36,416 nucleotides of DNA from positions 1-36,416 of the forward strand of contig JAFDXB010000112.1 of assembly GCA_018268175.1 (NCBI GenBank), written 5' to 3'. Made by a program: the position numbers and the translations under genes. This document shows, piece by piece, positions 1-30,381 of this stretch. The notes under the pieces were generated by a model that did not search any database, was not told where the DNA came from, and worked only from the letters and a program-made list of their open reading frames with translations. Position 1 is the stretch's first letter, and the number at the start of each line of letters is the position of its first letter. The stretch is from Bacteroidota bacterium (GTDB lineage: Bacteria > Bacteroidota > Bacteroidia > Chitinophagales > Chitinophagaceae).

Positions 1-1889
1 GGCCCCACACTTCTTACAGAAAACCCTCTTAAAGAATTTGTTCCACCAATAATATATTGTTTTGTAAAAGGAAGCAAAGCAGAATTATTATATGGTATTC
101 CAATGCCCAATTGAAAACGGTTTGCAAGATCTAATGTCTTACTTAATTTCCTTGTATATCTTACATCGAAATCAGTTTTAACATATTGGGCAAAAGGAGT
201 TCCCAGAATTTCCTTCTCCCGGAAATGCTTTGCACCGGTAATAAGCCCGGCCAGGTTTCCGGATAAATCAAGCCCTGCGGTAAAGAACCATTGATTTTTT
301 CTGTTTCTACTAAGATGTTTTAGTGAATATGATAAATAAGTTCCCAAAATGGCTTCAGAATATACATTCAGCAGCAAGGAAGGAGTAACGGCTGCTTGCT
401 TCATAAATGTATCTGAAATATTTGTAGCATTAAGATAGCTTAAAGAAAAAGGTGCAAAAGTGAACTGCTGTTTATTATCCGGTTTCCACGTAAAATCATA
501 TTGCGCATGGAAAAGGTTTTTATTGTAAAATAATTTTTTAATGAGCATTTCATAACCTAAACTAATATTAGTAATAGGCGGATAAAAATAATTCTCCGGA
601 ATATTAATAAATGGAATTGCATAGCGCGGAATTCTTAAAGTTGCATCAGCACCAATCCTGTAATTGCTGTTTTTTAAAGAGTCTGAATAACCATATTCAA
701 TACCGCCAAAACCCTTTATACTTAATTCCTCTGAGCCTTTAAAAGTATTTCTGTTCTTCCAGTTAACACTCAATTGTGTTCCCACATAATTATTATCTTT
801 TGAAAAAGCATCTATTCCAAATTGAATTGATTTTTTCTTAGCCGGAGTTAAATAGTAGTAAACATTTAAATTATGGTTAGCAGAATCTGCAATTTCAAAT
901 CTGTTCTTTACAAATTTGAATGAACCAAGGTTTATAAATCTGTTTAAAGTTGCGTTTTGTGTTCTTGTAGAATATAAATCGCCGGGGCGGTATGTGATTG
1001 CTGTTTTAAAAATGCGAGGCTTGAACTTGTTTTCGTTATTTTTTATGTATATACTGTCGTACATAAAAAAATCATTCCGGCTTGTATCTGCATTTATTTC
1101 TGCAAGAGAATACGTTGGATAAACAACAATATCATTTATTTTATACGAGTACTTCGCAACCTCCGGGGTTGTGGATTTCAGATTAAGAAATAAGTTTACT
1201 TTTCTACCGCCAACAGTACTATCCGCATAGGCCATAATATAATCAGGATTGAAAAAATAGTAACCCCTGTTTTTTAAAATTAAATCTAATCTTGTTCTTT
1301 CATTTGCTATATCATCAAGATTATAGCCATTCCCCTTTTTTAGTAGTGATCTTGTCTGCCCTTGAATTCGCCTGAGTTGATTTATAACTTTTATAGAATC
1401 ACCCGGCCAGCTTATTTCATTAATCGTATATTGAGGAAACACCTGCACTGTATAATGAGCTTTCGTAAAATAACTTTTATTGGTTGTATCGCCTTGTGCT
1501 GTTGAATGAAAGTAACCAAGGTTCTCTAAGCGCCCCTCAATATTTTTTGCAGTGTTTTCAGCATTTACGCGACTGCTTAAAACCGGAGGCTCACCTAATT
1601 TATTTCTTAAAAAAGCTTTTAATCCTTTTTCCCGCCGCGGCGGACCTATTGTGTACCACCACCACACTTTCCATGGCTGGCCTAAAAAAAATTTATTAGG
1701 CCTGGGCTGTATTGCTATTTTAATATCAGACTTTATAGATTTTGAAGATGTTGTTAGTTCAGGATGTTTTTCAATTTTTATACTTGCTCCGCGATAAAGC
1801 CTTTCGCCGGGAGGTAAATACCGCTTTACACTGCACGACGATAAAAGCGCAGTTATAACTACTACAAAAAATATTTTACTTTTTAGCAT
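1..1889 (-). CDS. tamL: Omp85/TamA-family outer-membrane lipoprotein (TamL), 3' end runs off the window
   Basis: Not in the ORF track (truncated); ends translated by hand. ATG at 1889 gives MLKSKIFFVVVITALLSSC-SVKRYLPPGERLY (lipobox LSSC). The same frame near the window start reads YIIGGTNSLRGFSVRSVG, the Omp85 (V/I/L)RG(F/Y) lid motif. Overlaps the tamB stop by 14 nt. Confidence 0.88.
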   Translation of the reverse strand, partial: MLKSKIFFVVVITALLSSCSVKRYLPPGERLYRGASIKIEKHPELTTSSKSIKSDIKIAIQPRPNKFFLGQPWKVWWWYTIGPPRREKGLKAFLRNKLGEPPVLSSRVNAENTAKNIEGRLENLGYFHSTAQGDTTNKSYFTKAHYTVQVFPQYTINEISWPGDSIKVINQLRRIQGQTRSLLKKGNGYNLDDIANERTRLDLILKNRGYYFFNPDYIMAYADSTVGGRKVNLFLNLKSTTPEVAKYSYKINDIVVYPTYSLAEINADTSRNDFFMYDSIYIKNNENKFKPRIFKTAITYRPGDLYSTRTQNATLNRFINLGSFKFVKNRFEIADSANHNLNVYYYLTPAKKKSIQFGIDAFSKDNNYVGTQLSVNWKNRNTFKGSEELSIKGFGGIEYGYSDSLKNSNYRIGADATLRIPRYAIPFINIPENYFYPPITNISLGYEMLIKKLFYNKNLFHAQYDFTWKPDNKQQFTFAPFSLSYLNATNISDTFMKQAAVTPSLLLNVYSEAILGTYLSYSLKHLSRNRKNQWFFTAGLDLSGNLAGLITGAKHFREKEILGTPFAQYVKTDFDVRYTRKLSKTLDLANRFQLGIGIPYNNSALLPFTKQYIIGGTNSLRGFSVRSVG

Positions 1890-4800
1890 TTTTCCTTTTT
1901 TGAAACAATTCTTTAAACTTGTCATAATCCATGGTCATTAAAAATCCAACACCTGTTTCCGTTACATAACCATCAAGCACAACCTCAAACTGACTTTTTC
2001 TGTAAGCCTTCAACATATACTTTCCATCTTTGCTAAGTTTATAACCAAAAGTTATATCCGGAATGTAAGCAGTGGATTTTGATGATGCGTTTTGCCCTTC
2101 GAGTTCAAAATTTTTACCAACGGTAACGGTAAGACGATCGTTGAGGAATGATTTAGATAATGATAGGTTTAAATCAGTTTTTTGAACACTACCCGTTCCC
2201 TGATAATCAGTGTAAGACTGCAAGCTTAAATCAACATCAACGCCTTTAAATATATCGTCCGCTATCTGGTTTAAGGCAGATGACAAAAACTGACTAACAC
2301 TTTGGCGTGCAAGTTCATCAAATCCACCTCCTTCGCCGGCAGAGAAGAAATCAGAACTTTGTTCACCAACAAACCTGTTTAATAACAACAATGAGAAAAC
2401 TTGTTTATTCATTGCTGATTCATCTCCACGAAGTTGAATGAGCTTATTTTCAACAGTTGTTCTGAGATTAGAATTAATTTTTGAATCAGATTCCTCATCC
2501 GGTAATTGTATATCGAATTTTATATCAGGCTTACTCATAACTCCTGATAATTTCAAAATTACCCTGTAGGGAATTTTTTGATTAAAAGAATTTGCCAAAA
2601 CAGCATCTGCATTTGCCACTTCATTTGACAGCAATTCCTTTGATGAAGTAGATGCAATGTATTCAGCAGTTATATCAACTCTGGCGTTCATCGGCTCACC
2701 GGCAAATGTAATTGTACTACCCTTATCTAAAACAAACTTCCTTTGCAGGAATTGATAATTTAAAACATAAGAACCTTTATCGAGAATATAAGTACCGGAT
2801 AGTATGATATTTCCCCCCGGATCAACACCGGCATTAAGTTGCGCATCGCCCTGAACCCGAAGCTCATCACCGGTAACGGGGTCTATAACAATGGTAAGAG
2901 CCGCATTTTTACTTATGCTAACATTTAAATTATAATTAAATGACTTTACGAAAGTCGGAGCTTCATCCTTCTCCCTTTTAAATCCTGATTGAGCCTTTGC
3001 AATATCAAAAGTGTCAAGATCAACAAAACGTACAATAGATTTTGACTGATCTTTATCAAAGCTTCTTTCGGGAAGGATAATAGATATATCACTTTCATCA
3101 TTTACAGAAACACTTCCTTCAATTACCGGCGCTTCCGATGTTCCTTTAATATTTATCTCGGTGTTAATTGCGGCGTAGCCGGAAATTTGATTATCAATTG
3201 CCTTCGGCTGATTAACGATTATAAAATCTGTTGCATTTACATCAAGGTTCAAATCGTACTGAGATAATGACCTTGATTTTATAGTGCCGTCAATAACAAG
3301 CGGATGATTCAACGAATCTGTTATCTTAAAATTATTAAAAGATATATTTGGATAGTTTAGATAAATTGTTTGATTATCTATTTTAAGAGGTGCGCCAAAT
3401 TGAGATAATGCAAATGAAGTGGTATCAAAGGTTATTGAGCCATTCCACCGTGGATCAGAAATTTTTCCTGATATAGAAACATTTCCATGAAGTTTTCCTG
3501 ACGACCTCTCTAACTGGCCTCCAGACAAACCTTCCAGCGTTTTAAAATTTAATGATGCAATATCTATATCTCCATCCAATCCTTCCGTATTTAAATTATA
3601 CTTTAATTGTGCCGTTATATCATTGTTGTTGCCTGAAAGTTTTAGTTCTGAGGAAATATTATTTTCATCCTGCTTGGCAGCTGTGAAATTTAAATTACCA
3701 ATTGGATTTTGTTTAAACTCCAGGGCAGTAATACTTGCCTCACCTTGAAATGCAGGTAGGGATTTCTTAAAATCACTAACTACCAAATCTGCATTTAAAA
3801 TGCCTGCAAGAAAAACTGTATCCTTATTAACAAAAGAACTTAAGCTTTTTAAATTAAAATTATCAACAGACACATCAATAGGACTATCAGGAATGTTGTC
3901 ACGGCTGTTAACAGATATCTTTGCTGTATCACTCGTTAATGTAAAATTATTTACAAGAATTCCATTCTTAGAATATTGAAAGTAATTATCAGGGTTCACA
4001 TTCCACGTTTCATAATTTAAGATCATATTGTCGGTTAAGCGAACAGTGTAAACATCATTAGCAGATGCAAGTGTGGCATTCAACCCAAACCATTTTTTTC
4101 CTGATTCATCGTTTGTTAGCACAGAAGTAGAAATGCTATCATTAGCGGCAGCGCCGGAAATATTACTAGAATAAAATTGATTGTTACCGGCTTTTAATTC
4201 TTCAAGTTGCAAATTATAATTTATCTTTTCATTTTTAGAGTTGACAGTAAAGTCCCCACCCTTTAAATCTATTGTATTGTAAACTAAATGAGGAATTTTC
4301 ATTTGAAAATTTAAAGCGCTGTCGCCACGCGATGAATTAAATTGTCCGTCAAAAGTAACTCTGTCAAAACCTTTTAGCCCTTTCACAACATCCATAAAAA
4401 TTGGGTGCGGTTCAATGCTACCTGATATTTCAATTTGCTGAGGCTCAGTTACCGGTTTTACTTTAGCTAAGGGATAATAATTATTAATGTAGTTAATAAC
4501 AGCATCTGAAATTTTAGTATAGTCAAAATCACCGGCAGCGGTTAGGTTTGCGAATTCGCTTTTCAAATAAACAGAATCAATTCCTTCAACAGTCTTGGCA
4601 TAAAGTTCAACCGAATCAAAAGAATAATGTTTGTTTTTAAGATCAACCATTATCGAATCAATTATTGCAAATGCATTTAAGCCATGAGGTTTAAGGCTTT
4701 GAGCATTTACATTTGCAGTAAGAGAAAAGTTTAGAGAATCAGGATATAGCTTTAAGGTTTTTAATTGTGCGGTATCAATCCTTACAAAACCGTTAATAAT

Positions 4801-7101
4801 AGGATAATCACTTTTTACATTTCCACTAATATCAAAATTAAGTTTTAGAGCAGGATCATTGATGTTGCCATTACTTATAATTTCACCGTTATTAAATTTT
4901 GCGTCAATTTTAGCATTGGTATAATTATACCCATTGAATTGCAGTTCAGAAATATCTGTATTAATATTAGACACCATTGTTTTATAATCGAAACCCTTTC
5001 CTTTTGCTACCACATTTACTGATACAATTCCTAAGCTGTCGTTACCAATTAATTTTCCTACGTTGAATTTATAGGTTGAAACATCCAAATCATACCTTGC
5101 AGTTTTAGGGTCGGAAAAATTGTTGATAAATCCTTTCACTGAAGCATCACCATAATCAGTATTTATTCTTACATCAGCTTTCAGGTTGTTAGAATTTCCT
5201 GCCAAAGAACCTTTTGCCGAAATATTTTCCGGAAGTGAAAATCCTTCAGGTAAAGAATTAGGAGGTATGAAACTCAAAATAAAATCACGTGTAAATGTTC
5301 CTTGATTAACTATTACACCATATTTTAATTTAGCCGGATCAGAGAAGTTTTTGACATTTACAACACCATTGAAATTGGCACCGGTAGCTTTAAGGTTAAT
5401 GTTTGCAGCTACCTCTTTTGTGTTTCCTATTAATCTCCCGCTAAAAGCGAAGTTTTCAGGCAAATCTTTAAATGACGCCATTTTATCTGCCGGTACAAAT
5501 TTTAAAATGTCGGATTTTTTAAAATTGCTTCCAAATATTGTGAGATCATAAGCAAACCTTTCTGCATCCTGCAGATTATATAGAACTCCTTTTGCATTGA
5601 TATTACTTCCATCAAGCCCGCCAATTTTTAATGAAGGAATAAATAGTTTCTTTAATGATCCATTAAGACTGGTGTTGATTGAAAGATATTTATTTTTGAA
5701 TTGTGATGGATCTAAAGATTTTTTAATAGCAGGCACTAACAGGTAAATATCATTAAACGCTATTCTGGTATTATTAAGATCAACATCTACAGAGGTTCCT
5801 GCAGGATTAAGTTTTATTCCTTCAATACTATCGTAAGACATTTCAAAATTTCTGCTTATAAAACTTTGAGGTGTTTTAATTACAAGATCTTTAGCATATA
5901 ATTTTTTATTGGAATAGAAAAGGGCAGCAGTGGTTGAATCAAGTACAAAACCACTTTTTTCGTTAAAAGCAAGTTGTTGTATGTTCGCTGAAATAGTATC
6001 CGGCGAAAATGTTAATTCAGAAACATCAGCAAAAAGTTTTGTAGCATTTATGTGATTTAAATCAACACCTTCTGTTGCAGGCGCAACAGTATTATTATTG
6101 AAAATAATGTTGTCATTCTTGAGTGAAATTTTATCAACCAAAAACCTCCAGGTAGATGGTGAAGGAATGTTAGTGGAATCAAAGGTTGAATCAGAAGTTA
6201 CCGGAGTATTAAAAATAATTTCTGATGAATCTAAAGAAATTAATTTAGCTTTTCCAACAGTTTTGGCAACATCAAATAGTGCATCTTCAAGAGTCAAATT
6301 TTTTACATCATTTGAATAAAACATCCCGCTAGTTTTATCATCAACACTAACAGTTACATTGTTTAATTTCAACCCTCCTGCGGTAACAAATAAATTGTAA
6401 GGGCTTAAAATTGAATCGGGAATTTCACCGGGAGTTTTCAACAATGGTTTTCCTGCAAACATTTCCATATTAAACTTCACTCCATCAGCAAAAAAATCTT
6501 TAATTTCAAATGCAAGCCTGTCCGGTTGGAATCGGTTAAGCTCAGTGTTTAAAGTATCTATTGCTGCATTAAAAACAGTTCCACCAAATTGATCATTAAA
6601 ATTTAGTTTTACCTGATTCAATATCAAATTATCTAAAGAAAGTTTTAAAGCTGCTGTATCTTTTACTGTTGTTTCCTTTTTATTACCGGTGAAGGCATCA
6701 ATTATAAATTGATAATTGAATACCGAATCGTTGTTTTGACGATACACTTTTGCTAAAATATTTTTAAGATATACTTTCCTTATGTGTGTATTTCCATTAA
6801 TCAGTTTTAGCATTTCAAGGTCAACTGACAATTCCTCGCCAAACAATAAAGTATCTTTTTTTTGATCTTCGATATATACATTCTTAAGTTCCACCCACTT
6901 TGGTAAACTGTAGTCAATTTCCCCGATAGAAATATTTGTTTTGAGTTTGGAATGAAGAAAACTAACAACGCGATTTTTTACAAATGTTTTCCCTGAATTA
7001 GTATTGAGCCAAATAAAAATTATAACGATAAGTGCAAGTATGCCAAGAATAAGATATAAAAATATCTTTCCTGTTTTTCGCAGTATCGTATTAGCTGTCA
7101 T
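1876..7101 (-). CDS. tamB: Translocation/assembly module TamB (AsmA-like, C-terminal DUF490), 1741 aa
   Basis: N-terminal transmembrane anchor, long beta-rich body and a DUF490-like C-terminus (QVFSLLLLNRF...LNDRLTVTVG...YKLSKDG). Adjacent to an Omp85 gene. Confidence 0.9.
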   Translation of the reverse strand: MTANTILRKTGKIFLYLILGILALIVIIFIWLNTNSGKTFVKNRVVSFLHSKLKTNISIGEIDYSLPKWVELKNVYIEDQKKDTLLFGEELSVDLEMLKLINGNTHIRKVYLKNILAKVYRQNNDSVFNYQFIIDAFTGNKKETTVKDTAALKLSLDNLILNQVKLNFNDQFGGTVFNAAIDTLNTELNRFQPDRLAFEIKDFFADGVKFNMEMFAGKPLLKTPGEIPDSILSPYNLFVTAGGLKLNNVTVSVDDKTSGMFYSNDVKNLTLEDALFDVAKTVGKAKLISLDSSEIIFNTPVTSDSTFDSTNIPSPSTWRFLVDKISLKNDNIIFNNNTVAPATEGVDLNHINATKLFADVSELTFSPDTISANIQQLAFNEKSGFVLDSTTAALFYSNKKLYAKDLVIKTPQSFISRNFEMSYDSIEGIKLNPAGTSVDVDLNNTRIAFNDIYLLVPAIKKSLDPSQFKNKYLSINTSLNGSLKKLFIPSLKIGGLDGSNINAKGVLYNLQDAERFAYDLTIFGSNFKKSDILKFVPADKMASFKDLPENFAFSGRLIGNTKEVAANINLKATGANFNGVVNVKNFSDPAKLKYGVIVNQGTFTRDFILSFIPPNSLPEGFSLPENISAKGSLAGNSNNLKADVRINTDYGDASVKGFINNFSDPKTARYDLDVSTYKFNVGKLIGNDSLGIVSVNVVAKGKGFDYKTMVSNINTDISELQFNGYNYTNAKIDAKFNNGEIISNGNINDPALKLNFDISGNVKSDYPIINGFVRIDTAQLKTLKLYPDSLNFSLTANVNAQSLKPHGLNAFAIIDSIMVDLKNKHYSFDSVELYAKTVEGIDSVYLKSEFANLTAAGDFDYTKISDAVINYINNYYPLAKVKPVTEPQQIEISGSIEPHPIFMDVVKGLKGFDRVTFDGQFNSSRGDSALNFQMKIPHLVYNTIDLKGGDFTVNSKNEKINYNLQLEELKAGNNQFYSSNISGAAANDSISTSVLTNDESGKKWFGLNATLASANDVYTVRLTDNMILNYETWNVNPDNYFQYSKNGILVNNFTLTSDTAKISVNSRDNIPDSPIDVSVDNFNLKSLSSFVNKDTVFLAGILNADLVVSDFKKSLPAFQGEASITALEFKQNPIGNLNFTAAKQDENNISSELKLSGNNNDITAQLKYNLNTEGLDGDIDIASLNFKTLEGLSGGQLERSSGKLHGNVSISGKISDPRWNGSITFDTTSFALSQFGAPLKIDNQTIYLNYPNISFNNFKITDSLNHPLVIDGTIKSRSLSQYDLNLDVNATDFIIVNQPKAIDNQISGYAAINTEINIKGTSEAPVIEGSVSVNDESDISIILPERSFDKDQSKSIVRFVDLDTFDIAKAQSGFKREKDEAPTFVKSFNYNLNVSISKNAALTIVIDPVTGDELRVQGDAQLNAGVDPGGNIILSGTYILDKGSYVLNYQFLQRKFVLDKGSTITFAGEPMNARVDITAEYIASTSSKELLSNEVANADAVLANSFNQKIPYRVILKLSGVMSKPDIKFDIQLPDEESDSKINSNLRTTVENKLIQLRGDESAMNKQVFSLLLLNRFVGEQSSDFFSAGEGGGFDELARQSVSQFLSSALNQIADDIFKGVDVDLSLQSYTDYQGTGSVQKTDLNLSLSKSFLNDRLTVTVGKNFELEGQNASSKSTAYIPDITFGYKLSKDGKYMLKAYRKSQFEVVLDGYVTETGVGFLMTMDYDKFKELFQKRKNAKK

Positions 7102-7130
7102 TAAAACTTAAAAATTTTCTTTACATAATA

Positions 7131-7146
7131 TAAAGAATTATGCCTT
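7131..7146 (-). promoter_or_regulatory. Sigma-54-like -24/-12 promoter for tamB-tamL
   Basis: Minus strand AAGGCATAATTCTTTA (GGCAT-N5-TT-TA), ending 30 nt before the tamB ATG. The same motif occurs at the same distance before two neighbouring genes. Confidence 0.5.
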
Positions 7147-7218
7147 AAATGCGAGGGTGAAATTACGGCAGAGCTATAATATTTTCGGGAAAATAATTCC
7201 CCATGTTAAGATAATATA

Positions 7219-7788
7219 CTATTTTTTGTTCTTCGCCAGCCATTTATTGATAGGTGAACTTTTTGGTGTGTGGTCTTCACTGTTATAATTTTCCTTAGCA
7301 TATTTATCGCGGTGTTTAATCAAAAGCCAACTATTATCATCTGAATTTTTAAGTTTTACCAATGCAAATTCACCTTTAAGTTTTCTTCCCTTCATAGTGA
7401 ATTTTAAATTTCCCTCATGGAGCATTTTTAGGAGGTCTTTTTCCGGGTTATCAGATTTTTCAATTGTTGTGTAGGTTCCTTTATCCCAAATTTCTACAAT
7501 ACCGGCTCCATAGCCGGATGGAATAACTCCTGCAAAATCTTTATAATCATAAGGGTGGTCTTCAACCATCATTGCAAGCCTTTTATCGGCAGGATCTAAT
7601 GATGGCCCTTTTGGTACTGCCCAACTTTTTAAAACTCCCTTCATCTCTAAACGGAAATCATAATGCAGGTGAGATGCCTTATGACGTTGAACCACAAACG
7701 AAAGCGTTTTTTCATTATTACTTTTGCCACCTGTTGGTTCAGGAGATGATTTAAAATCTCTTTTAGATTTATATTTACTTAAACTCAT
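7219..7788 (-). CDS. Stand-alone LigD 3'-phosphoesterase (PE) domain protein
   Basis: Motifs YxxKRDFxxSPEP, FVVQRHKASHLHYDFRLE, LKSWAVPKGPS, VEDHPYDY and YGAGIVEIWDKGTY are the LigD PE signature. Ends at 189 aa with no ligase or polymerase domain. Confidence 0.93.
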   Translation of the reverse strand: MSLSKYKSKRDFKSSPEPTGGKSNNEKTLSFVVQRHKASHLHYDFRLEMKGVLKSWAVPKGPSLDPADKRLAMMVEDHPYDYKDFAGVIPSGYGAGIVEIWDKGTYTTIEKSDNPEKDLLKMLHEGNLKFTMKGRKLKGEFALVKLKNSDDNSWLLIKHRDKYAKENYNSEDHTPKSSPINKWLAKNKK

Positions 7789-8567
7789 TAGCTTGCTTTT
7801 TTACGTTTATTACTGCCAAGACTTTCTTTCAATTGTGCCATCAGGTCATTAGTTTTACTATGCACAACTTTCATTTGAGGCACTTTGGTTTTAATACCTT
7901 TTGCTTTAGCGTTAATTAGTTTTAGTAATTCTTCAGTATATGTGTCTTTGTATTTGCTTATATCAAATTTTGATGTTAGCTGATCAATAAGAGTAACAGC
8001 CATTTTAAGTTCGGCGGGCTTCAAATCTGCTTTAGCAGGAATGTTTAATTCAGCGGTATCTCTAATTTCTTCTTCAAAGCGAATGCGGTTTAAAATTATT
8101 ACATCATCTTGAGCCCTTATAACAGCTAATGCTTCCTTATTTCTAAGGACAAATGTTGCTACTCCGGCCTTCTTTGTTTTTTTTAAAGCTTCTCTAAGAA
8201 GTGAGTAGGCGCGAACGCCGAGCTTATCGGGAACCAAATAATAAGGGGTTTCATAATACACTGAATCTATATCTTCAGCATTTACAAAATCCGTAATTTC
8301 TATTAATTTAGTTTTAACAGCATTTGCTTTTTCAAAATCTTTATCATCAAGAATTACATATTTACTTCCTACCATGTAGCCTTTAACAATATCTGAGTAT
8401 TTTACTTCCTTACCTGTTTTTTCGTTTACCCTTTTAAATTTTATATTGCTTTTGTCATGCTTATCAAGCATGTCCAAATTAAGAGTGCTCGATTCAGTTG
8501 CACTATAGAGTTTTACAGGAATATTTACGAGCCCAAAAGCAATTGCACCTGTCCATATCGGTCTCAT
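7788..8567 (-). CDS. ku: Non-homologous end-joining protein Ku
   Basis: MRPIWTGAIAFGLVNIPVKLYSA start, YYETPYYLVP, YSLLREAL, DLMAQLKESL and a short basic tail. Stop overlaps the PE start (TAATG). Confidence 0.97.
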   Translation of the reverse strand: MRPIWTGAIAFGLVNIPVKLYSATESSTLNLDMLDKHDKSNIKFKRVNEKTGKEVKYSDIVKGYMVGSKYVILDDKDFEKANAVKTKLIEITDFVNAEDIDSVYYETPYYLVPDKLGVRAYSLLREALKKTKKAGVATFVLRNKEALAVIRAQDDVIILNRIRFEEEIRDTAELNIPAKADLKPAELKMAVTLIDQLTSKFDISKYKDTYTEELLKLINAKAKGIKTKVPQMKVVHSKTNDLMAQLKESLGSNKRKKAS

Positions 8568-8586
8568 AATTTTTTAATTTAATTGT

Positions 8587-9702
8587 TCAACTATGATAAG
8601 CTTTTTGAAGAATTGCCATAATTATTTCTTCTTCCGGCGATAAAAGGCCATTTTCTTTATTTTCTAAATACTGTTCATACTTTTTAAAATAATTTCTAAG
8701 AGTATGGTTCTCATAAAAATTAAATACATCAGGATGAATGTAATATTTCTTACAAACAGCCCTTGTATTTCCCAACAAAGCAGCAACTTTATCTAAAGTT
8801 GTTACAATATTTTTTTTAATGGCTGAGGCTGTTTCGCTTTCCCCACATTCTTTAAGGCTAAGAAATGCATTAACTGTGCCAGCCCACGTCCTGAAGTCTT
8901 TTGCAGTAAAGTTAGATCCGCTTATTTCTTTTATGTAATCATTTAGCATCCCTGAATCTATGGGATGTTTATTTCCGTTATCATCATAATATTGAAACAA
9001 TTCCTTTCCCGGTATTTCTTTGGTTTTCTGAACAATACTTGCAAGTTTTCTGTTTTTAAGGTTAATAACATGTTCAACACCCTTTTTTCCTTTGAACGAA
9101 AATTTTAAGGTTCCTCCGTTAATTGTAACATGCTTATTCTTCATAGTAGTTAGTCCGAATGAGCCATACAATTTTTCATATACTTCATTACCAATTCTTA
9201 TATTAGTTTGCTCCATTAAACTTAATACCGTAGCAAGAATCTTTCGTTCATTAAGTTCTTTGCAAGCCAGATCTTTATTCACCTGCTCTCTTATATTTGG
9301 CAACGCTTTTCCGAAATCTATCATTCTGTAAAATTTTGTATGGTTTCGCAAAGCATTCCACAGTTCATGGTATTTGTATTGCTTTCTTCCTCTAACATCA
9401 ATTCCTGTAACTTGCAAGTGGCCGTTATCTTTTTCGCATATCCAAACGTTTGTCCATGCAGGTGGTATTACCAAATGCTTTATGCGCTGCAGAATTTCCT
9501 GATCTTTTATTTGTTCGCCTTTAAAAAAGTATTTAAAATTGGGAGCCCGGCCTTTTCTTTCTATTCCCGGCTGATGATCAGAAACATAACGTAAATGCAT
9601 AGCTTTAGCCGAAAGTTCCGGATCATGCATTAACTTTTTTAATTTTTTAGCCGGTATTTTATTTATGATATTGGTATCAACCGTTGATGATTTCGCCGCC
9701 AT
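8587..9702 (-). CDS. Bacterial (poxvirus-like) DNA topoisomerase IB
   Basis: IPPAWTNVWIC, GHLQVTGIDVRGRKQYKYH and the catalytic set RIGNE / KGKKG / KDFRTW / LGNT / CKKYYIHP. Start moved from 9816 to the ATG at 9702 (MAAKSS) to avoid a long overlap with the SDR gene. Confidence 0.94.
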   Translation of the reverse strand: MAAKSSTVDTNIINKIPAKKLKKLMHDPELSAKAMHLRYVSDHQPGIERKGRAPNFKYFFKGEQIKDQEILQRIKHLVIPPAWTNVWICEKDNGHLQVTGIDVRGRKQYKYHELWNALRNHTKFYRMIDFGKALPNIREQVNKDLACKELNERKILATVLSLMEQTNIRIGNEVYEKLYGSFGLTTMKNKHVTINGGTLKFSFKGKKGVEHVINLKNRKLASIVQKTKEIPGKELFQYYDDNGNKHPIDSGMLNDYIKEISGSNFTAKDFRTWAGTVNAFLSLKECGESETASAIKKNIVTTLDKVAALLGNTRAVCKKYYIHPDVFNFYENHTLRNYFKKYEQYLENKENGLLSPEEEIIMAILQKAYHS

Positions 9703-10543
9703 TGGGATGTAGTATTTGTCCGGTAAAATAAGATCCATCTTTGCTTGCCAAAAACAGATAGGCGGGTGCAATTTCATTAGGCTCGCCGGCCCGCCCCATA
9801 GGCGAATCTGAACCATGTGTTGCTACATCTTCCTTTTCAAAAGTAGCAGGTATCAACGGTGTCCATACCGGACCGGGCGCAACACCATTAACACGAATTT
9901 TCCGGTCAATAAGATTTGCAGATAAACTTCTTGTGAAACTTACAATTGCACCTTTGGTGGATGAATAATCAATTAAACCACCGCTCCCTCTGTAGGCAGT
10001 AACTGAGGTTGTGTTTATTATACAACTTCCTTCCTTCATATATTTTAAAGATGCTGCAGTTAAATAAAACATTGAAAAAATATTTGTAGAAAAAGTTTTT
10101 AATAACTGTTCTTGTGAAATGTCTTCAAGAGTTTTTTGAACAAACTGAACGCCGGCATTGTTAACTAAAATATCTATGGTGCCAAATTCTTTAATTACTT
10201 GCTCTACAATGTTTTCACAGTGCTGCTTTTGGCCAACATCTCCCGGCAGGAGTAAGCATCTCTTGTTATAACTTCCAATTATTGATTTCGCTACTTCACT
10301 AGCATCATCATCTTCACTTAAATAAGATATTGCAATATCTGCTCCTTCACTGGCAAACAACAATGCAACGGCTTTACCTATTCCACTGTCTCCTCCTGTA
10401 ATTAATGCTTTTTTTCCTGTTAGCTTCCCTTGTTTTGGTTCAACAGGTTCACTTTTAGGTAATGGCTTCATTTCTGATTCTTTACCCGGCAATGTTTGCG
10501 ATTGCGGTGGCCTTACATTTTTTTCTTCCTTTGATTTTTGCAT
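9677..10543 (-). CDS. SDR-family oxidoreductase, general-stress type (YghA/YhxC/Gsp39-like)
   Basis: TGGDSGIG Rossmann motif, NNAG, YSSTK catalytic motif, N-terminal PPQxQxxPGxExxMxPxP extension and C-terminal GQILHPNGG. Likely start is the ATG at 10543 (MQKSKEE). Confidence 0.92.
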   Translation of the reverse strand: MQKSKEEKNVRPPQSQTLPGKESEMKPLPKSEPVEPKQGKLTGKKALITGGDSGIGKAVALLFASEGADIAISYLSEDDDASEVAKSIIGSYNKRCLLLPGDVGQKQHCENIVEQVIKEFGTIDILVNNAGVQFVQKTLEDISQEQLLKTFSTNIFSMFYLTAASLKYMKEGSCIINTTSVTAYRGSGGLIDYSSTKGAIVSFTRSLSANLIDRKIRVNGVAPGPVWTPLIPATFEKEDVATHGSDSPMGRAGEPNEIAPAYLFLASKDGSYFTGQILHPNGGEIING

Positions 10544-10568
10544 TAGACTATTTTTTATTTCAATACAT

Positions 10569-10584
10569 AGAAATATTGTGCCTT
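10569..10584 (-). promoter_or_regulatory. Sigma-54-like -24/-12 promoter for the SDR-topIB-ku-PE operon
   Basis: Minus strand AAGGCACAATATTTCT (GGCAC-N5-TT-CT), ending 26 nt before the ATG at 10543. Confidence 0.5.
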
Positions 10585-10650
10585 CGCTAAAAGTGATTAA
10601 GGTAGAGAAGAAATTTCTACAAAACATTACTCAATCGAGATTCGCCGGAT

Positions 10651-10666
10651 ATGGTATGAACTTTGA
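10651..10666 (+). promoter_or_regulatory. Sigma-54-like -24/-12 promoter for the PNPOx-like gene
   Basis: ATGGTATGAACTTTGA (TGGTAT-N5-TT-GA), ending 28 nt before the ATG at 10694. Confidence 0.52.
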
Positions 10667-10693: not shown

Positions 10694-11185
10694 ATGCAAC
10701 AATTAACAGATACCAACCTTAAATTTCTAGTAGATAAAATTCATGATATAAAAGTTGCTTTATTTAAGCCTGAAATGAATTCAGAACTTAAGCTTCCAAA
10801 CAATATAATTCAGGTTATTAAAACCGATAATAGCGGGAATGTTTATTTTTTTACTTCATGTATGAATGAGCAGGCAAAAAATCTTGAAAAGTGTTTTTAT
10901 GCTTATCTGGATTTTTACAAAAAAGGTTCAGAAGAAAGATTAAAAATAAGCGGCAAAGCTTCAATTGTAAGTGATGAAGAATTAACTCATATTCTGTTTA
11001 AGGAGGGCTTATATTCTGCCGGAACAGCTCCACGGCTTGTTCTAATAAAATTAAATATTTTACAAGCTGAATTTTCTGAAGCAAGACTGCCTGTTTACAA
11101 AGATTTTTCTTTAATGTCTAAAATAAAATCTGCATTTCTTTCAATTTTCTTTACTCCATCGCACAGGCAATTTGATTTTTCTTAA
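10694..11185 (+). CDS. Pyridoxamine 5'-phosphate oxidase-like / general stress protein 26-like FMN split-barrel protein (divergent)
   Basis: Pattern LVDKIHDIKVALF ... DNSGNVYFFTS ... LKISGKASIV ... LVLIKLNILQAEF resembles the Gsp26/PNPOx-like fold. ATG 10694 preferred over TTG 10676. Confidence 0.65.
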   Translation: MQQLTDTNLKFLVDKIHDIKVALFKPEMNSELKLPNNIIQVIKTDNSGNVYFFTSCMNEQAKNLEKCFYAYLDFYKKGSEERLKISGKASIVSDEELTHILFKEGLYSAGTAPRLVLIKLNILQAEFSEARLPVYKDFSLMSKIKSAFLSIFFTPSHRQFDFS

Positions 11186-17515: not shown

Positions 17516-18997
17516 TTAAAGGATTTTCCTAAGCCTTGCAACGGGAATATTAAGTTGTTCACGATATTTTGCCACAGTTCTGCGGGCAATGTTATATCCT
17601 TTTTCCTGAAGCATTTCAGTTAATTTTTCATCACTGTAAGGATGCTTTTTATTTTCTGCATCTATCATATCAGTGAGAATTTTCTTTACTTCCCTTGTGC
17701 TTACTTCCTCACCGGAATCAGTTTGTAAACTTTCACTGAAGAAAAATTTAAGCCTGTAACTTCCAAACTCCGTTTGAACAAACTTGCTGTTAGCAACCCG
17801 GCTCACTGTAGAAATATCAAGATTAGTAAGTTCAGCGATATCTTTTAGAATCATTGGTTTCAATTCAGTTTCATCGCCTGTAAGAAAGAAATTTCTTTGG
17901 TAATTCATAATTGCTTCCATTGTATTAAGCAAAGTATTTTGCCTTTGTTTGATAGCATCTATAAACCACTTTGCGGAATCAATTTTTTGTTTAATGAACA
18001 TTACTGCTTCCTTCTGCCTTTTATCTTTCTTTGAACCTTTGTCGTAATCTTTAAGCATGTCGCGGTAACCTTCGCTAATGCGAAGATCCGGCGCGTTTTT
18101 GCTGTTTAGCGACAATTCCAGTTTACCGTTATTGTTTACAATAAAGAAATCGGGAATAATATAATTTTCACCTTTACTTTGATCGTTTACAATACCACCC
18201 GGTTTTGGATTGAGTTTAATAATTATATTAATGATATCCCGAAGTTGCTGATCATTAAGATCGAGAGCTTTTTGTATTTTCTCGTAATGCTTCTTTGTAA
18301 ATTCATCAAAGTATTTATCAATTATCTTAATTGCAAGTTCGGTTTCCTGATTTTGTTCTTGTTTTCTCCTGAGTTGTATCAATAGGCACTCCTGTAAATT
18401 TCTGGCTCCAACTCCCGGTGGGTCGAACTGCTGGATTTTAGCGATAATATTATTTAATTCTTTTGGAGTTGTTTCAATTCCCTGCCGAAAGGCAAGGTCA
18501 TCAATCAAAGCAGTTTCTTCACGCCTTAAATAGCCATCATCATCAAGGCTGCCTACAAGATGAACTGCAATTTTTCTTTCTTCATCATTAAGAGTTAGCA
18601 ACCCAAGCTGGCTTAGCATAAGTTCATTAAAACTGGTTTCAACCTTATGAGGTATCACTCTGTTATCTTCAGAGTCGGGATAATTTTCATCGCGTAATCT
18701 GTAATCACCAACTTCATCATCTCCCTCATGCACATACTCACTTATATCAATATTTTCATAATCATCTGAACTGCCGTCAGGTTCAAAATCATCAGTGTTA
18801 TCTGCAAATTCATCATGATTGTCAGCCTCTTCTTCAACAGAATCTTCAACTTGTTCAAGAGCAGGATTTTCTTCAATCTCTTCTTTTATTCTTTCGTCGA
18901 GAATAGCAGTAGGCACTTGTAAAAGTTTCATCAGTTGAATTTGCTGAGGTGATAACTTTTGCAAAAGCTTTTGCTGTAAACTCTGATGTAATGCCAT
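17516..18997 (-). CDS. rpoN: RNA polymerase sigma-54 factor
   Basis: Gln/Leu-rich region I, DPPGVGARNLQECLLIQL, HTH DISTVSRV and RpoN box ARRTVAKYRE. Confidence 0.99.
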   Translation of the reverse strand: MALHQSLQQKLLQKLSPQQIQLMKLLQVPTAILDERIKEEIEENPALEQVEDSVEEEADNHDEFADNTDDFEPDGSSDDYENIDISEYVHEGDDEVGDYRLRDENYPDSEDNRVIPHKVETSFNELMLSQLGLLTLNDEERKIAVHLVGSLDDDGYLRREETALIDDLAFRQGIETTPKELNNIIAKIQQFDPPGVGARNLQECLLIQLRRKQEQNQETELAIKIIDKYFDEFTKKHYEKIQKALDLNDQQLRDIINIIIKLNPKPGGIVNDQSKGENYIIPDFFIVNNNGKLELSLNSKNAPDLRISEGYRDMLKDYDKGSKKDKRQKEAVMFIKQKIDSAKWFIDAIKQRQNTLLNTMEAIMNYQRNFFLTGDETELKPMILKDIAELTNLDISTVSRVANSKFVQTEFGSYRLKFFFSESLQTDSGEEVSTREVKKILTDMIDAENKKHPYSDEKLTEMLQEKGYNIARRTVAKYREQLNIPVARLRKIL

Positions 18998-26727: not shown

Positions 26728-27338
26728 GCCAATTGTTCTTCTATCCTTTCTTCCGGCTGAAGGTAATAAGTTTTAAAACCCATTCTTTTTGCTGCTTCAA
26801 TATTATTAATTGAATCATCAATAAACAAAGTGCCTTCCGCTTTTATGCCGGCATCATTCATCACAAATTCAAATACATTTTCATATGGTTTTCTATATCC
26901 TATTAAATGAGAATAATATGCCTTTTTAAAAAAGGAGGATAAAGAAGTATAATTTGTTTGTTGCAAAAGCATTTTATCAAACTCCCTTTTATGTGTAATG
27001 TTTGTATTACTAAGAAGGTACAGGTTGTACTTTTGTTTTAATAATTCCAGAAATTCCAGGCTTTCAATTCTATAGCTAAGTAGCATATCATTCCATGCAC
27101 TAATAATTTGTGCTGTAGATGGGGGCGGAGTTTTAAGAGATTTTAAAGTTTCAAAAAGTAGCTCTTCGGAAATATGGCCCTTTTCAAAATTTTCAAAAAG
27201 GCCATTGATTTTATATTGAGAAAATAATTCTTCAAAATTATTATAACCAAGTTTTTTGAAAGATTCAACAGTTCGGTTGTAATCAATATTGAGAAGTACA
27301 CCGCCGAAATCGAACAATAAATTTTTAAAATCCTCCAT
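26709..27338 (-). CDS. HAD-superfamily phosphatase (YihX-like)
   Basis: Motif I FDFGGVL, LLSNTN, RKP and FIDDS. Confidence 0.92.
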   Translation of the reverse strand: MEDFKNLLFDFGGVLLNIDYNRTVESFKKLGYNNFEELFSQYKINGLFENFEKGHISEELLFETLKSLKTPPPSTAQIISAWNDMLLSYRIESLEFLELLKQKYNLYLLSNTNITHKREFDKMLLQQTNYTSLSSFFKKAYYSHLIGYRKPYENVFEFVMNDAGIKAEGTLFIDDSINNIEAAKRMGFKTYYLQPEERIEEQLAYLISS

Positions 27339-28473: not shown

Positions 28474-30381
28474 ATGAGGCTTTTATTGGTTTTATTGATG
28501 CTTGTTAACGAAATTTTCGCACAGGGCATTGAATGCAAAGACTTTACATTCGAAAGAAATTATGCTTTAAAAAAAATGACTGCAAAAAGAACTCAGGCAT
28601 CATCAAACTTTAAAGTTCATTATTATGATTGTACCTTTTATATTGATCCTGCTGTTTATAACATTGCGGGCAATGTAAACGTTCACTTTAAAGCAACATC
28701 TAACCTTACAGAAATTAGCCTCGACCTTAACAACACACTTTTTGTTGACAGCATTATTTATAATGGTTTACAAATAAATTTTGCTCACGATGAAGATGTA
28801 TTAAATATTTTTTTTCCGGCAACAATTAACTCAGGTTCTTACGATAGCGTAAAGATTTATTATCATGGTATTCCTGAAAATTCAGGAAATGGATCGTTTG
28901 TAAAAAGTTCGCATGCAGGTAAGCCAATAATTTGGACATTAAGTGAACCTTATGGCGCAATGGACTGGTGGCCATGCAAAAACGGCCTTGAAGAAAAAGC
29001 AGATTCACTCGATGTGAGAATTATTCATCCATCAGCTTATAAAGCTGCAAGCAATGGTTTGCTGCAATCTGAATTGCAATATGATGCTTCAACTACAATT
29101 ACACATTGGAAGCACCGTTACCCTATTGCAACGTATCTTGTATGCCTTGCTGTAACGAACTATTCTGTGTTTACAAACACAGTTCAGTTGCAAACTGCGC
29201 AATTGCCGATGGTTACTTATTGTTATCCTGAACAATTAAATACATGGGTAAATTATTCGCCACCGGTTTTAGAACAATTAAAATATTTTGACAGCCTTAT
29301 ATCGCCGTATCCTTTTATAAAAGAAAAATATGGCCATGTTCAGTTTGGTTGGGGTGGAGGTATGGAACATCAAACTTCAACATTTATAATTACACCCAAT
29401 GAAAGCCTTATGGCGCATGAACTTGCACATCAATGGTTTGGAAACCTTGTAACGAATTATTCGTGGAAAGACGCATGGCTCAATGAAGGTTTTGCCACTT
29501 ACTTTGCGAATATATTTATGGAGAAGAAGTATCCTCAAAATATTTTGCGTAACCGCAGAATGGAAGTTGAAGATATAACATCTGAACCCGGAGGATCAGT
29601 ATTTGTTGATGATACAACAGATATAAACCGGATATTTTCATCACGGCTTACTTACAACAAAGGCTCACATCTTGTTTACATGCTAAGGTTTTTACTTGGA
29701 GATGAAGCCTTCTTTGCAGGTTTGAGATCCTACCTTTCAGACCCCGCACTTGCATATAATTTTGTTTCAACTCAAAATTTAAAAACCCATCTTGAAGCTG
29801 CTTCGGGAAAGGACTTAACAACATTTTTTGATCAATGGTATAAGAAGGAAGGCTATCCTTCGTATAAATTAAAATGGACGCAAATAAGTGGAAACACGGT
29901 GAAGATAATTGTTGACCAACAAACATCGCACCCTTCGGTAACGTTTTTTAAAATGCCGTTGCCGTTGAAATTTAAAAACAGCAATTCAGAAAAAACAATA
30001 ATTGTTGATTGTGAATATAACGCCCAACAATTTATAAAAGATATAGGCTTTGTAGCAGATACTGTTTTGATAGACCCCGACTACGTTTTAATTTCAAAAA
30101 ACAATGAGTCTGAAAAAATTGAGATATCGCGAGAATTGAATGGAATGGATATTTTCCCTAATCCGGCCTCAGATGTTGTAAATGTCCAATTGTATAATCT
30201 GGAATGCCCTCAGATTAAATGGGAACTTTATAATGATATAGGACAAATTGTAAAGAAGAGCACGATGAATGTATTTGTGAATGAAATTTTTCAAATTAAT
30301 ATCAGCAACCTAAGTAAAGGAGTTTATTTTCTGAAGGTAATTTGCGGTACTGATGTAAGAATTAAAAAAATTATTAAATAG
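28474..30381 (+). CDS. M1-family zinc aminopeptidase with T9SS type A C-terminal sorting domain
   Basis: GGMEH exopeptidase motif, HELAHQWFGN...WLNEGFA zinc motif, YNKG, and CTD IFPNPA...LSKGVYFLKV...KKIIK. Confidence 0.95.
   Translation: MRLLLVLLMLVNEIFAQGIECKDFTFERNYALKKMTAKRTQASSNFKVHYYDCTFYIDPAVYNIAGNVNVHFKATSNLTEISLDLNNTLFVDSIIYNGLQINFAHDEDVLNIFFPATINSGSYDSVKIYYHGIPENSGNGSFVKSSHAGKPIIWTLSEPYGAMDWWPCKNGLEEKADSLDVRIIHPSAYKAASNGLLQSELQYDASTTITHWKHRYPIATYLVCLAVTNYSVFTNTVQLQTAQLPMVTYCYPEQLNTWVNYSPPVLEQLKYFDSLISPYPFIKEKYGHVQFGWGGGMEHQTSTFIITPNESLMAHELAHQWFGNLVTNYSWKDAWLNEGFATYFANIFMEKKYPQNILRNRRMEVEDITSEPGGSVFVDDTTDINRIFSSRLTYNKGSHLVYMLRFLLGDEAFFAGLRSYLSDPALAYNFVSTQNLKTHLEAASGKDLTTFFDQWYKKEGYPSYKLKWTQISGNTVKIIVDQQTSHPSVTFFKMPLPLKFKNSNSEKTIIVDCEYNAQQFIKDIGFVADTVLIDPDYVLISKNNESEKIEISRELNGMDIFPNPASDVVNVQLYNLECPQIKWELYNDIGQIVKKSTMNVFVNEIFQINISNLSKGVYFLKVICGTDVRIKKIIK

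Follow-up and report, generated by a model that had tools for sequence, protein, structure and literature searches.

Putative sigma-54-type promoters and an upstream palindrome at a stress-type gene island of Chitinophagaceae

Contig JAFDXB010000112.1 of a Bacteroidota bacterium (Chitinophagaceae; assembly GCA_018268175.1) was analysed over 36,416 nt (hereafter the window). It carries a gene island which includes genes for non-homologous end joining (NHEJ), together with three short promoter-like boxes that an original prediction, made from the sequence alone, had ascribed to the sigma factor RpoN (sigma-54). Comparative genomics supports the core of that proposal, namely that sigma-54-type promoters mark a general-stress-type gene set including NHEJ. 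Judged from sequence comparison, the boxes are probably RpoN promoters of this set, which would be switched on by one NtrC-type activator through an 18-bp palindrome. This palindrome upstream of the stress promoters is the new element, the parts of the circuit all being of known kinds.

The finding bears on how general stress protection is switched on in Bacteroidota of soil and water. To the picture of the regulon the window adds a mechanism, with a testable circuit of sigma factor, activator, kinase, binding site and targets, NHEJ among them. RpoN holoenzyme would bind the three boxes, the kinase would phosphorylate the activator under some stress, and the activator would then bind the palindrome and open the promoter with ATP. 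Culturable relatives in which the candidate circuit could be tested include Ginsengibacter hankyongi and Sediminibacterium ginsengisoli. The genome that holds the window as its contig C14 (G000; 2.27 Mb, 285 contigs, 93% complete) was compared with a sample of 120 genomes of the family; G-numbers denote genomes and L-numbers loci of relatives. The nearest named relatives of its Ku protein are from Ferruginibacter and other Chitinophagaceae, at no more than 78% identity.

The three boxes and their conservation

The first box (7131..7146, minus strand; GG at 7144-7143, TT-TA; 10.9 bits) precedes a tamB paralog. The second (10569..10584, minus strand; GG at 10582-10581, TT-CT; 10.0 bits) precedes a unit of genes for a short-chain dehydrogenase (SDR), topoisomerase IB (topIB), Ku and the phosphoesterase (PE) domain of LigD, while the third (10651..10666, plus strand; GG at 10653-10654, TT-GA; 15.5 bits) precedes a divergent Pyrid_ox-like gene. 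As originally reported, these 16-mers end 30, 26 and 28 nt from the ATG codons at 7101, 10543 and 10694 and read TA, CT and GA at the GC position of the -12 element. A TAnnTTTG promoter is absent from the 100 nt before each of tamB, SDR, the Pyrid_ox-like gene and ku. Transcription start sites (TSSs) are predicted near 7119 (tamB), 10557 (SDR) and 10678 (Pyrid_ox-like). The -24 context is GGCAT, GGCAC and GGTAT respectively, with a T preceding GG in most orthologs.

Matches to the bare pattern GGYAY-N5-TT are no more frequent in the window than expected by chance (22 vs. 22.4 +/- 5.0 in shuffles). The evidence for the boxes comes from position and conservation, and the pattern alone proves nothing. 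With regard to position, 30 forward matches vs. 9 on the reverse strand were found 30-59 nt before the starts of 1050 G000 genes with an upstream gap of at least 40 nt. A box matrix trained solely on relatives' ku, SDR, Pyrid_ox-like and dnaK sites scored at least 11 bits at 40 of 1217 G000 genes, whereas the reverse strand gave 10 and shuffles gave 4.4.

Close orthologs carry the box upstream in 22/22 (Pyrid_ox-like), 10/14 (SDR) and 7/11 (tamB paralog) cases, and five of the seven box-bearing tamB orthologs read TT-TC. With one genome taken per genus, the GG-N8-TT anchor was found family-wide before dnaK in 29/29, Pyrid_ox-like genes in 26/29, SDR in 14/28 and the tamB paralog in 6/22, and before ku in 57/106 when these genomes were pooled with the loci of Ku relatives; many of the misses look operon-internal. 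In the neighbourhoods of 80 ku loci, 117 of 840 open reading frames (ORFs) possess a box of at least 10 bits, while the reverse strand gives 19; the ku sites in this count belong to the training set. In a phylum-wide sample, seven of 27 loci have a box of at least 7.9 bits directly upstream of ku, two of them from the window's own family.

The nearest described counterpart is the TSS-mapped SM4 ('Sig54') promoter class of Flavobacterium psychrophilum, which its authors assign to sigma-54 (PMC9723704). In the portions of that paper available, its targets include groES, dnaK, grpE, clpB, lon, htpG, skp and an AsmA-family gene; promoter mutagenesis was carried out at remF. Like SM4, the window boxes have the form TGGYAY-N5-TT with fixed spacing, lie 25-80 nt before a start codon and are conserved in orthologs; further points of likeness are a relaxed -12 C (eight of the 14 SM4 sites compared lack C), chaperone and AsmA-family targets and three activators per genome. 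In those 14 sites (of 95 rows) G follows TT throughout, and the base after it varies (C at 6 sites, T at 5, A at 2, G at 1). In contrast, this G is present in the window in the Pyrid_ox-like box only and is lacking from the tamB and SDR boxes, as it is from most ku, SDR, tamB and topIB sites of relatives. Table 2A of the same paper contains no NHEJ or general-stress genes, and neither an enhancer nor a dedicated activator is named in the portions available. The canonical -12 GC, ten nt after GG, is lacking from all three window boxes. They are likely a variant which would work like canonical sigma-54 promoters without being filed as such, and natural promoters of this kind test the reach of the textbook promoter rule.

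The palindrome and its candidate activator

De novo expectation maximisation, applied to 94 sequences that precede the boxes of ku, SDR, Pyrid_ox-like and tamB genes, yielded an 18-bp palindrome, TGTRGAA-W4-TTCYACA (log-likelihood 323 vs. 37 in shuffles), with centres in this set near 39, 50, 60 and 71 bp before the first G. When each gene family was held out in turn, it was recovered at Pyrid_ox-like genes in 19/25, ku in 27/48, SDR in 5/13 and tamB in 1/8, shuffles giving less than one each. None of 29 dnaK boxes is preceded by it. Among the 117 box-bearing ORFs of the ku loci, 63 possess the palindrome, the distances peaking at 45-54 and 70-74 bp. At ku loci of the phylum sample it reaches 10 bits directly upstream of ku in 2/27, and outside the family in 1/24.

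The best match in the window, a candidate activator site at 7186..7203 (16.8 bits), has its centre 50 bp before the GG of the tamB box, and six of the seven box-bearing close tamB orthologs have the palindrome too. The possibility of this site being a terminator for ligD was rejected, there being no U-run and no terminator-like hairpin (z = -0.87). The two divergent boxes flank a degenerate copy at 10604..10621 (9.7 bits), which is 30 bp away from the SDR GG and 40 bp away from that of the Pyrid_ox-like gene. In five relatives (L097, L099, L101, L102 and L104) a strong palindrome is common to this divergent pair, 70-74 bp from the SDR and 49-51 bp from the Pyrid_ox-like box. The strongest promoter-linked palindrome of G000 (G000:C20:3515-4215; 18.4 bits) stands 49 bp before a weak box and precedes a small ORF and a putative dps, as read from the sequence. 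Matches within coding sequence of the window at 27217-27234 (16.5 bits) and 29245-29262 (14.6 bits) show the false-positive rate of the matrix.

G000 encodes three sigma-54 activators, two of which have close counterparts in nearly every genome checked. The third (G000:C253:1216-2628) is an intact frame of 470 aa with a receiver, an AAA+ domain with the GAFTGA motif and a Fis-type helix-turn-helix (HTH). Beside it lie yihY, a pair of small genes with boxes and the truncated beginning of a probable receiver-bearing kinase gene; the 51 aa of this that precede the contig end look similar to the kinase of G103 and have no Pfam hit. In G103 the kinase is complete (REC-PAS-HisKA-HATPase), and the order is a ytxH-like gene, a second rpoN (rpoN2), the activator, the kinase, yihY, topIB and a DUF892-like gene, approximately 10 kb from ku.

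Orthologs of this activator (E < 1e-135, plus two partial matches at 58-62% identity, six genomes with weaker matches being left out) were surveyed with 13 candidates scored per genome. They were found in 51 of 59 ku-positive vs. 15 of 61 ku-negative genomes, kin among these not being independent. In six genomes without a clear ortholog no palindrome of at least 9 bits was found before ku. The complete same-genus genome G056 has only the two universal activators and no match to ku or SDR, and its Pyrid_ox-like gene has neither box nor palindrome upstream. At this locus (L356, G056:C19) the ytxH-like and Pyrid_ox-like genes are kept and the boxes lost, which amounts to a natural loss experiment.

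The divergent rpoN2 is found in 31 of the 120 family genomes, 30 of which have the activator, and mostly lies directly upstream of the activator gene. Its own promoter box has a poor -24 element and usually TTGC. The palindrome is present upstream of it in 26 of 30 loci, regions which lay outside the training set, mostly 100-140 bp before the box; a divergent neighbouring gene could share this palindrome. The rpoN2-activator unit may form a positive feedback loop.

The promoters are most likely activator-dependent and not bypass promoters, because the palindrome occurs at the stress promoters, the activator tracks ku, and RpoN keeps the features of the activator lock (see below). Since RpoN has chaperone targets as well, it would be the activator, and not the sigma factor, that confers specificity for general stress. 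The proposal of RpoN as the general-stress sigma factor is supported for promoter type and gene set, and is not supported as regards specificity. The housekeeping rpoN, a single universal gene in a housekeeping context, lies within 6 kb on either side of ku in none of 80 loci, two of which have rpoN2; its presence 7 kb away in the window, which had been taken as evidence, looks coincidental.

The -12 element and the weighing of alternatives

At the -12 dinucleotide the 29 dnaK promoters read GA in 21, GT in 5 and GC in 3, C thus being absent in 26/29. The G is kept in 24/26 Pyrid_ox-like promoters, compared to 13/57 at ku (where TC 19, TT 9 and TA 8 are the commonest alternatives) and 3/14 at SDR. 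For its C position the non-canonical -12 is not special, as the dnaK counts and the eight published SM4 sites without C show. On these counts, loss of the C appears to be the norm in the family and largely in the Bacteroidota, and loss of the G appears to be confined to, or typical of, stress-island genes of Chitinophagaceae. RpoN2 as the reader of G-less promoters was ruled out, as genomes with a single rpoN also have G-less boxes (ku 7/7, SDR 9/11), G000 itself among them.

All 30 phylum-wide RpoN proteins examined have DIST(V/I)SR in the HTH compared to the enteric HESTISR, that is DIS for HES. Residue E378 of RpoN can be cross-linked to promoter DNA, and contacts of the HTH with DNA fall near -14 (PMC5505868). 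In a published Ala-Cys scan the first numeric column, its heading not seen, gives 68 for residues 377/378, 2 for 379/380 and 0 for 383/384 (PMC2715252). A link between the H377D/E378I change and the relaxed -12 C is plausible, and this phylum-wide change may loosen the reading of that base.

A trade-off between the two promoter halves was seen among 183 ORFs with a strong palindrome, 114 of which have exactly one GG-N8-TT anchor, the informative positions being unused in the choice. With CAY at -24 (n = 47), the -12 dinucleotide is never GC, is G followed by non-C in 6, TC in 22 and neither in 19; with TAY it is G-nonC in 27/34, and with any other -24 it is GC in 16/33. Full -24 and full -12 elements never occur together in these 114 enhancer-bearing promoters. 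Gene families dominate the cells of this table, with which it is confounded, so its p-value overstates the effect, a point against the proposed circuit. The dnaK promoters have both CAY and G and are without the palindrome. The half-consensus may be read as a deliberate weakness which ties the stress promoters to an enhancer-bound activator; kept weak, the boxes would depend on their own activator and be insulated from the chaperone branch, which would share the sigma factor yet have stronger boxes and another kind of element upstream. Weaker promoters are said, from Klebsiella nifH work, to need their enhancer more. Activation from solution is described as weaker in the relevant part of a review (PMC3844500). 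The wider scheme, that Chitinophagaceae would run general stress and heat shock on one sigma-54, split by a half-consensus code, a close palindrome, the HTH change and, in a quarter of the family, RpoN2 feedback, is a tentative one and on balance doubtful.

An element CTG(C/A)CA-W5/6-T(T/G)CA is found before dnaK, 20-22 bp before GG in 28 of 29 genera and 32 bp in one (G000:C32; L177-L206), and in G000 weaker elements of this type precede clpB, a secA-like gene and a gene for one membrane protein. It is a candidate site for a heat-shock regulator, perhaps the receiver-less universal activator on C86. A match before the window tamB (13.9 bits) was treated as chance, being present in none of 11 close orthologs.

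Several observations weigh against the circuit proposed here. The palindrome is weakly tied to boxes in G000 (4/91 vs. 25/1631 at 10 bits, p = 0.06; 6/91 vs. 62/1631 at 8 bits, p = 0.17), where 32 of 277 matches are intergenic and where ligD, GH15, PfpI and one KGG gene have boxes without it. Sigma-54 enhancers usually lie 70-150 bp upstream, often in tandem and assisted by IHF, according to the sections available of two sources (PMC3844500, PMC7057263). At most targets the palindrome is 30-75 bp from GG, closer than that range; a distance as short as the 30 bp of the SDR promoter fits poorly with looping. The sites are single, with no recurrent second site in 52 promoters, an IHF-like box is absent from 48 spacers, and phasing is modest (Rayleigh p 0.02 at 10.5 bp, n = 30). 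Direct autoregulation at the activator gene was rejected, since no more than 3/30 of its loci have the palindrome upstream. Palindromes are also present in four genomes where an activator ortholog was not found, namely G087 (97% complete) and the fragmented G077, G080 and G038; the ku boxes of G007 and G017 are without the palindrome, and G007 keeps its G-less box without an activator ortholog as well. In the available portions of PMC9723704 SM4 is equated with sigma-54 because the motifs are alike and on the strength of promoter mutagenesis; an rpoN mutant is not part of the argument. G000 also holds a second RpoD/SigA-like factor of unassigned role, and its tamB and SDR boxes are more degenerate than those of relatives (TA and CT vs. 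mostly TC). Together with the loss in G056, these boxes allow that the circuit is eroding in the window's lineage.

The closeness and singleness of the sites, the genomes with a palindrome and no ortholog found, the two ku boxes without a palindrome and the near-universal presence of two other activators would all suit a different arrangement, in which another protein (a repressor or an architectural co-activator) binds the palindrome and the RpoN boxes are activated from solution by the family's universal activators. This is unlikely, in view of the palindrome 100-140 bp before the rpoN2-activator promoter in most of those 26 loci, its absence at ku in the six genomes that lack a clear ortholog, its absence in G056, and the activator's own HTH.

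It is improbable that the boxes are decaying remnants or chance matches in a small genome whose regulon they no longer drive. The chance-level pattern in the window, the degenerate tamB and SDR boxes, the weak shared palindrome (nearer the promoters than in relatives) and the loss in the same-genus genome are consistent with such decay. Against it, the activator frame is intact, all genes of the cluster are open, the palindromes before tamB and the putative dps unit stand at the modal distance of 49-50 bp, and the three genes have no TAnnTTTG promoter.

Still less probable is that, once the -12 GC is lost, RpoN holoenzyme needs hardly any activator, or none, to open these promoters and so acts in the manner of RpoS or SigB, as had been hinted originally. 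Wang, Guo and Gralla in 1999 reportedly linked enteric -12 changes to leaky, activator-independent transcription, and the HTH and base-pocket residues are unlike those of enteric RpoN; the G007 box would also fit. Loss of Region I or R336 gives activator bypass (PMC5505868). In contrast, the window RpoN has Region I, the R336-equivalent and the RpoN box intact, and all 30 sequences from across the phylum retain the R336-equivalent. E. coli sigma-N captures an A/T base after the -12 dinucleotide and tolerates C or G poorly (PMC10083551). At the window sites this base is T, A and A. Moreover, the palindrome is present at 26 of 41 G-less ku promoters, the GAFTGA activator co-occurs with ku, and a universal housekeeping rpoN would by itself give no stress specificity. 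On activator dependence, the original prediction was probably wrong in direction. With regard to the captured-base pocket, RpoN has Q at the enteric S335 position, and the dnaK promoters often break the rule, with C in 15 and G in 6 (21/29).

The reading of the boxes by a sigma-70-family factor, either the second short RpoD/SigA-like protein or an extracytoplasmic function (ECF) factor, is the least likely alternative. Two region-3-bearing sigma-70 factors among 11 region-2 matches in G000 could supply it, and rpoN mutant data for any Bacteroidota were not found in the literature; nevertheless, the fixed GG-N8-TT spacing and the position match sigma-54 promoters, a second rpoN stands with the activator inside the island in 31 of the 120 genomes, and neither RpoD-like factor reaches an RpoS, SigB or RpoH cut-off or has an upstream box. 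The two short factors are encoded at G000:C125:6186-6956 and C182:4133-5011, and either may be the primary factor.

Relation to known systems and the genes of the island

Besides those of the window, the box-bearing genes of G000 include ligD, a GH15/trehalase-like gene, PfpI and KGG-repeat proteins, and box-bearing units also lead to DUF892, YtxH and DUF2383. General-stress markers (Ku/LigD, DUF892, KGG, YtxH, PfpI, GH15 and SDR) thus stand under one promoter type. No match at the level of RpoS, SigB or RpoH was found in G000, where both RpoD/SigA-like factors fall under the cut-offs and the ECF factors were listed, not classified for EcfG. The gene set is not a member of the SigB/RpoS class.

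The SigB, SigG and RpoS regulons place NHEJ and typical stress markers under one control. In Sinorhizobium meliloti the EcfG (RpoE2) general stress regulon controls ku3-ku4 and ligD4, according to the sections of the source available (PMC6379672). The island resembles these regulons in having NHEJ genes and the above stress markers under a common control; it differs in that this control is predicted to act via sigma-54 and an ATP-dependent activator, a dedicated sigma-70-family stress factor not having been found.

Like NtrC-type systems, the candidate circuit has an activator of receiver, AAA+ (GAFTGA) and Fis HTH, a neighbouring PAS histidine kinase (complete in G103, a putative start in G000) and a palindrome of TGT-N12-ACA type, which presumably resembles GlrR/NifA sites. 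As far as the enhancer literature cited above goes, it differs in its single, close sites with no IHF box found, and it also differs in that it would serve a large stress regulon and that the activator gene is immediately preceded, in approximately one quarter of the family, by a second rpoN.

A survey with position-specific scoring matrices predicts sigma-54 control of chaperones and proteases in Bacteroidota, its passages on that phylum being without NHEJ, general-stress genes, a G-less -12 or an enhancer (PMC12316311). Bacteroides thetaiotaomicron is described, in the part of the paper available, as having an unassigned second motif, PM2 (PMC7366714). No paper describing control of general stress or NHEJ by sigma-54 in Bacteroidota was found in the literature, subscription journals being thinly covered.

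The originally claimed identities of the window's genes hold, that of LigD for its phosphoesterase domain only. The TamB paralog (1876..7101, minus strand; 1741 aa, PF04357) is a second, patchy copy beside the universal tamB; tamB matches fall into two score classes over the 120 genomes, and the paralog is present in 17 of the 80 ku loci. Frames of this paralog in ku islands are approximately 1650-1790 aa, vs. approximately 1600 aa for the universal TamB. The SDR (9677..10543, minus strand) is PRK06701-like (NF005214, 387 bits vs. a cut-off of 413) and is presumably of the YghA/YhdF kind. It is followed by DNA topoisomerase IB (8587..9702, minus strand; PF01028, PF21338), the start codon of which is uncertain, Ku (7788..8567, minus strand; TIGR02772) and a stand-alone LigD 3'-phosphoesterase domain (7219..7788, minus strand; TIGR02777). 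Ku would be transcribed from the SDR promoter, because it has no box of its own (best upstream score -3.2), the gap to topIB is 19 nt and there is no terminator-like site on the minus strand. LigD is split, the ligase-polymerase part being encoded on contig C159 (G000:C159:3-1298) with its own box of 16.4 bits. The divergent Pyrid_ox_like protein (10694..11185, plus strand; PF16242) is presumably of the Gsp26 kind, and RpoN (17516..18997, minus strand; TIGR02395), the single copy in G000, follows hflX.

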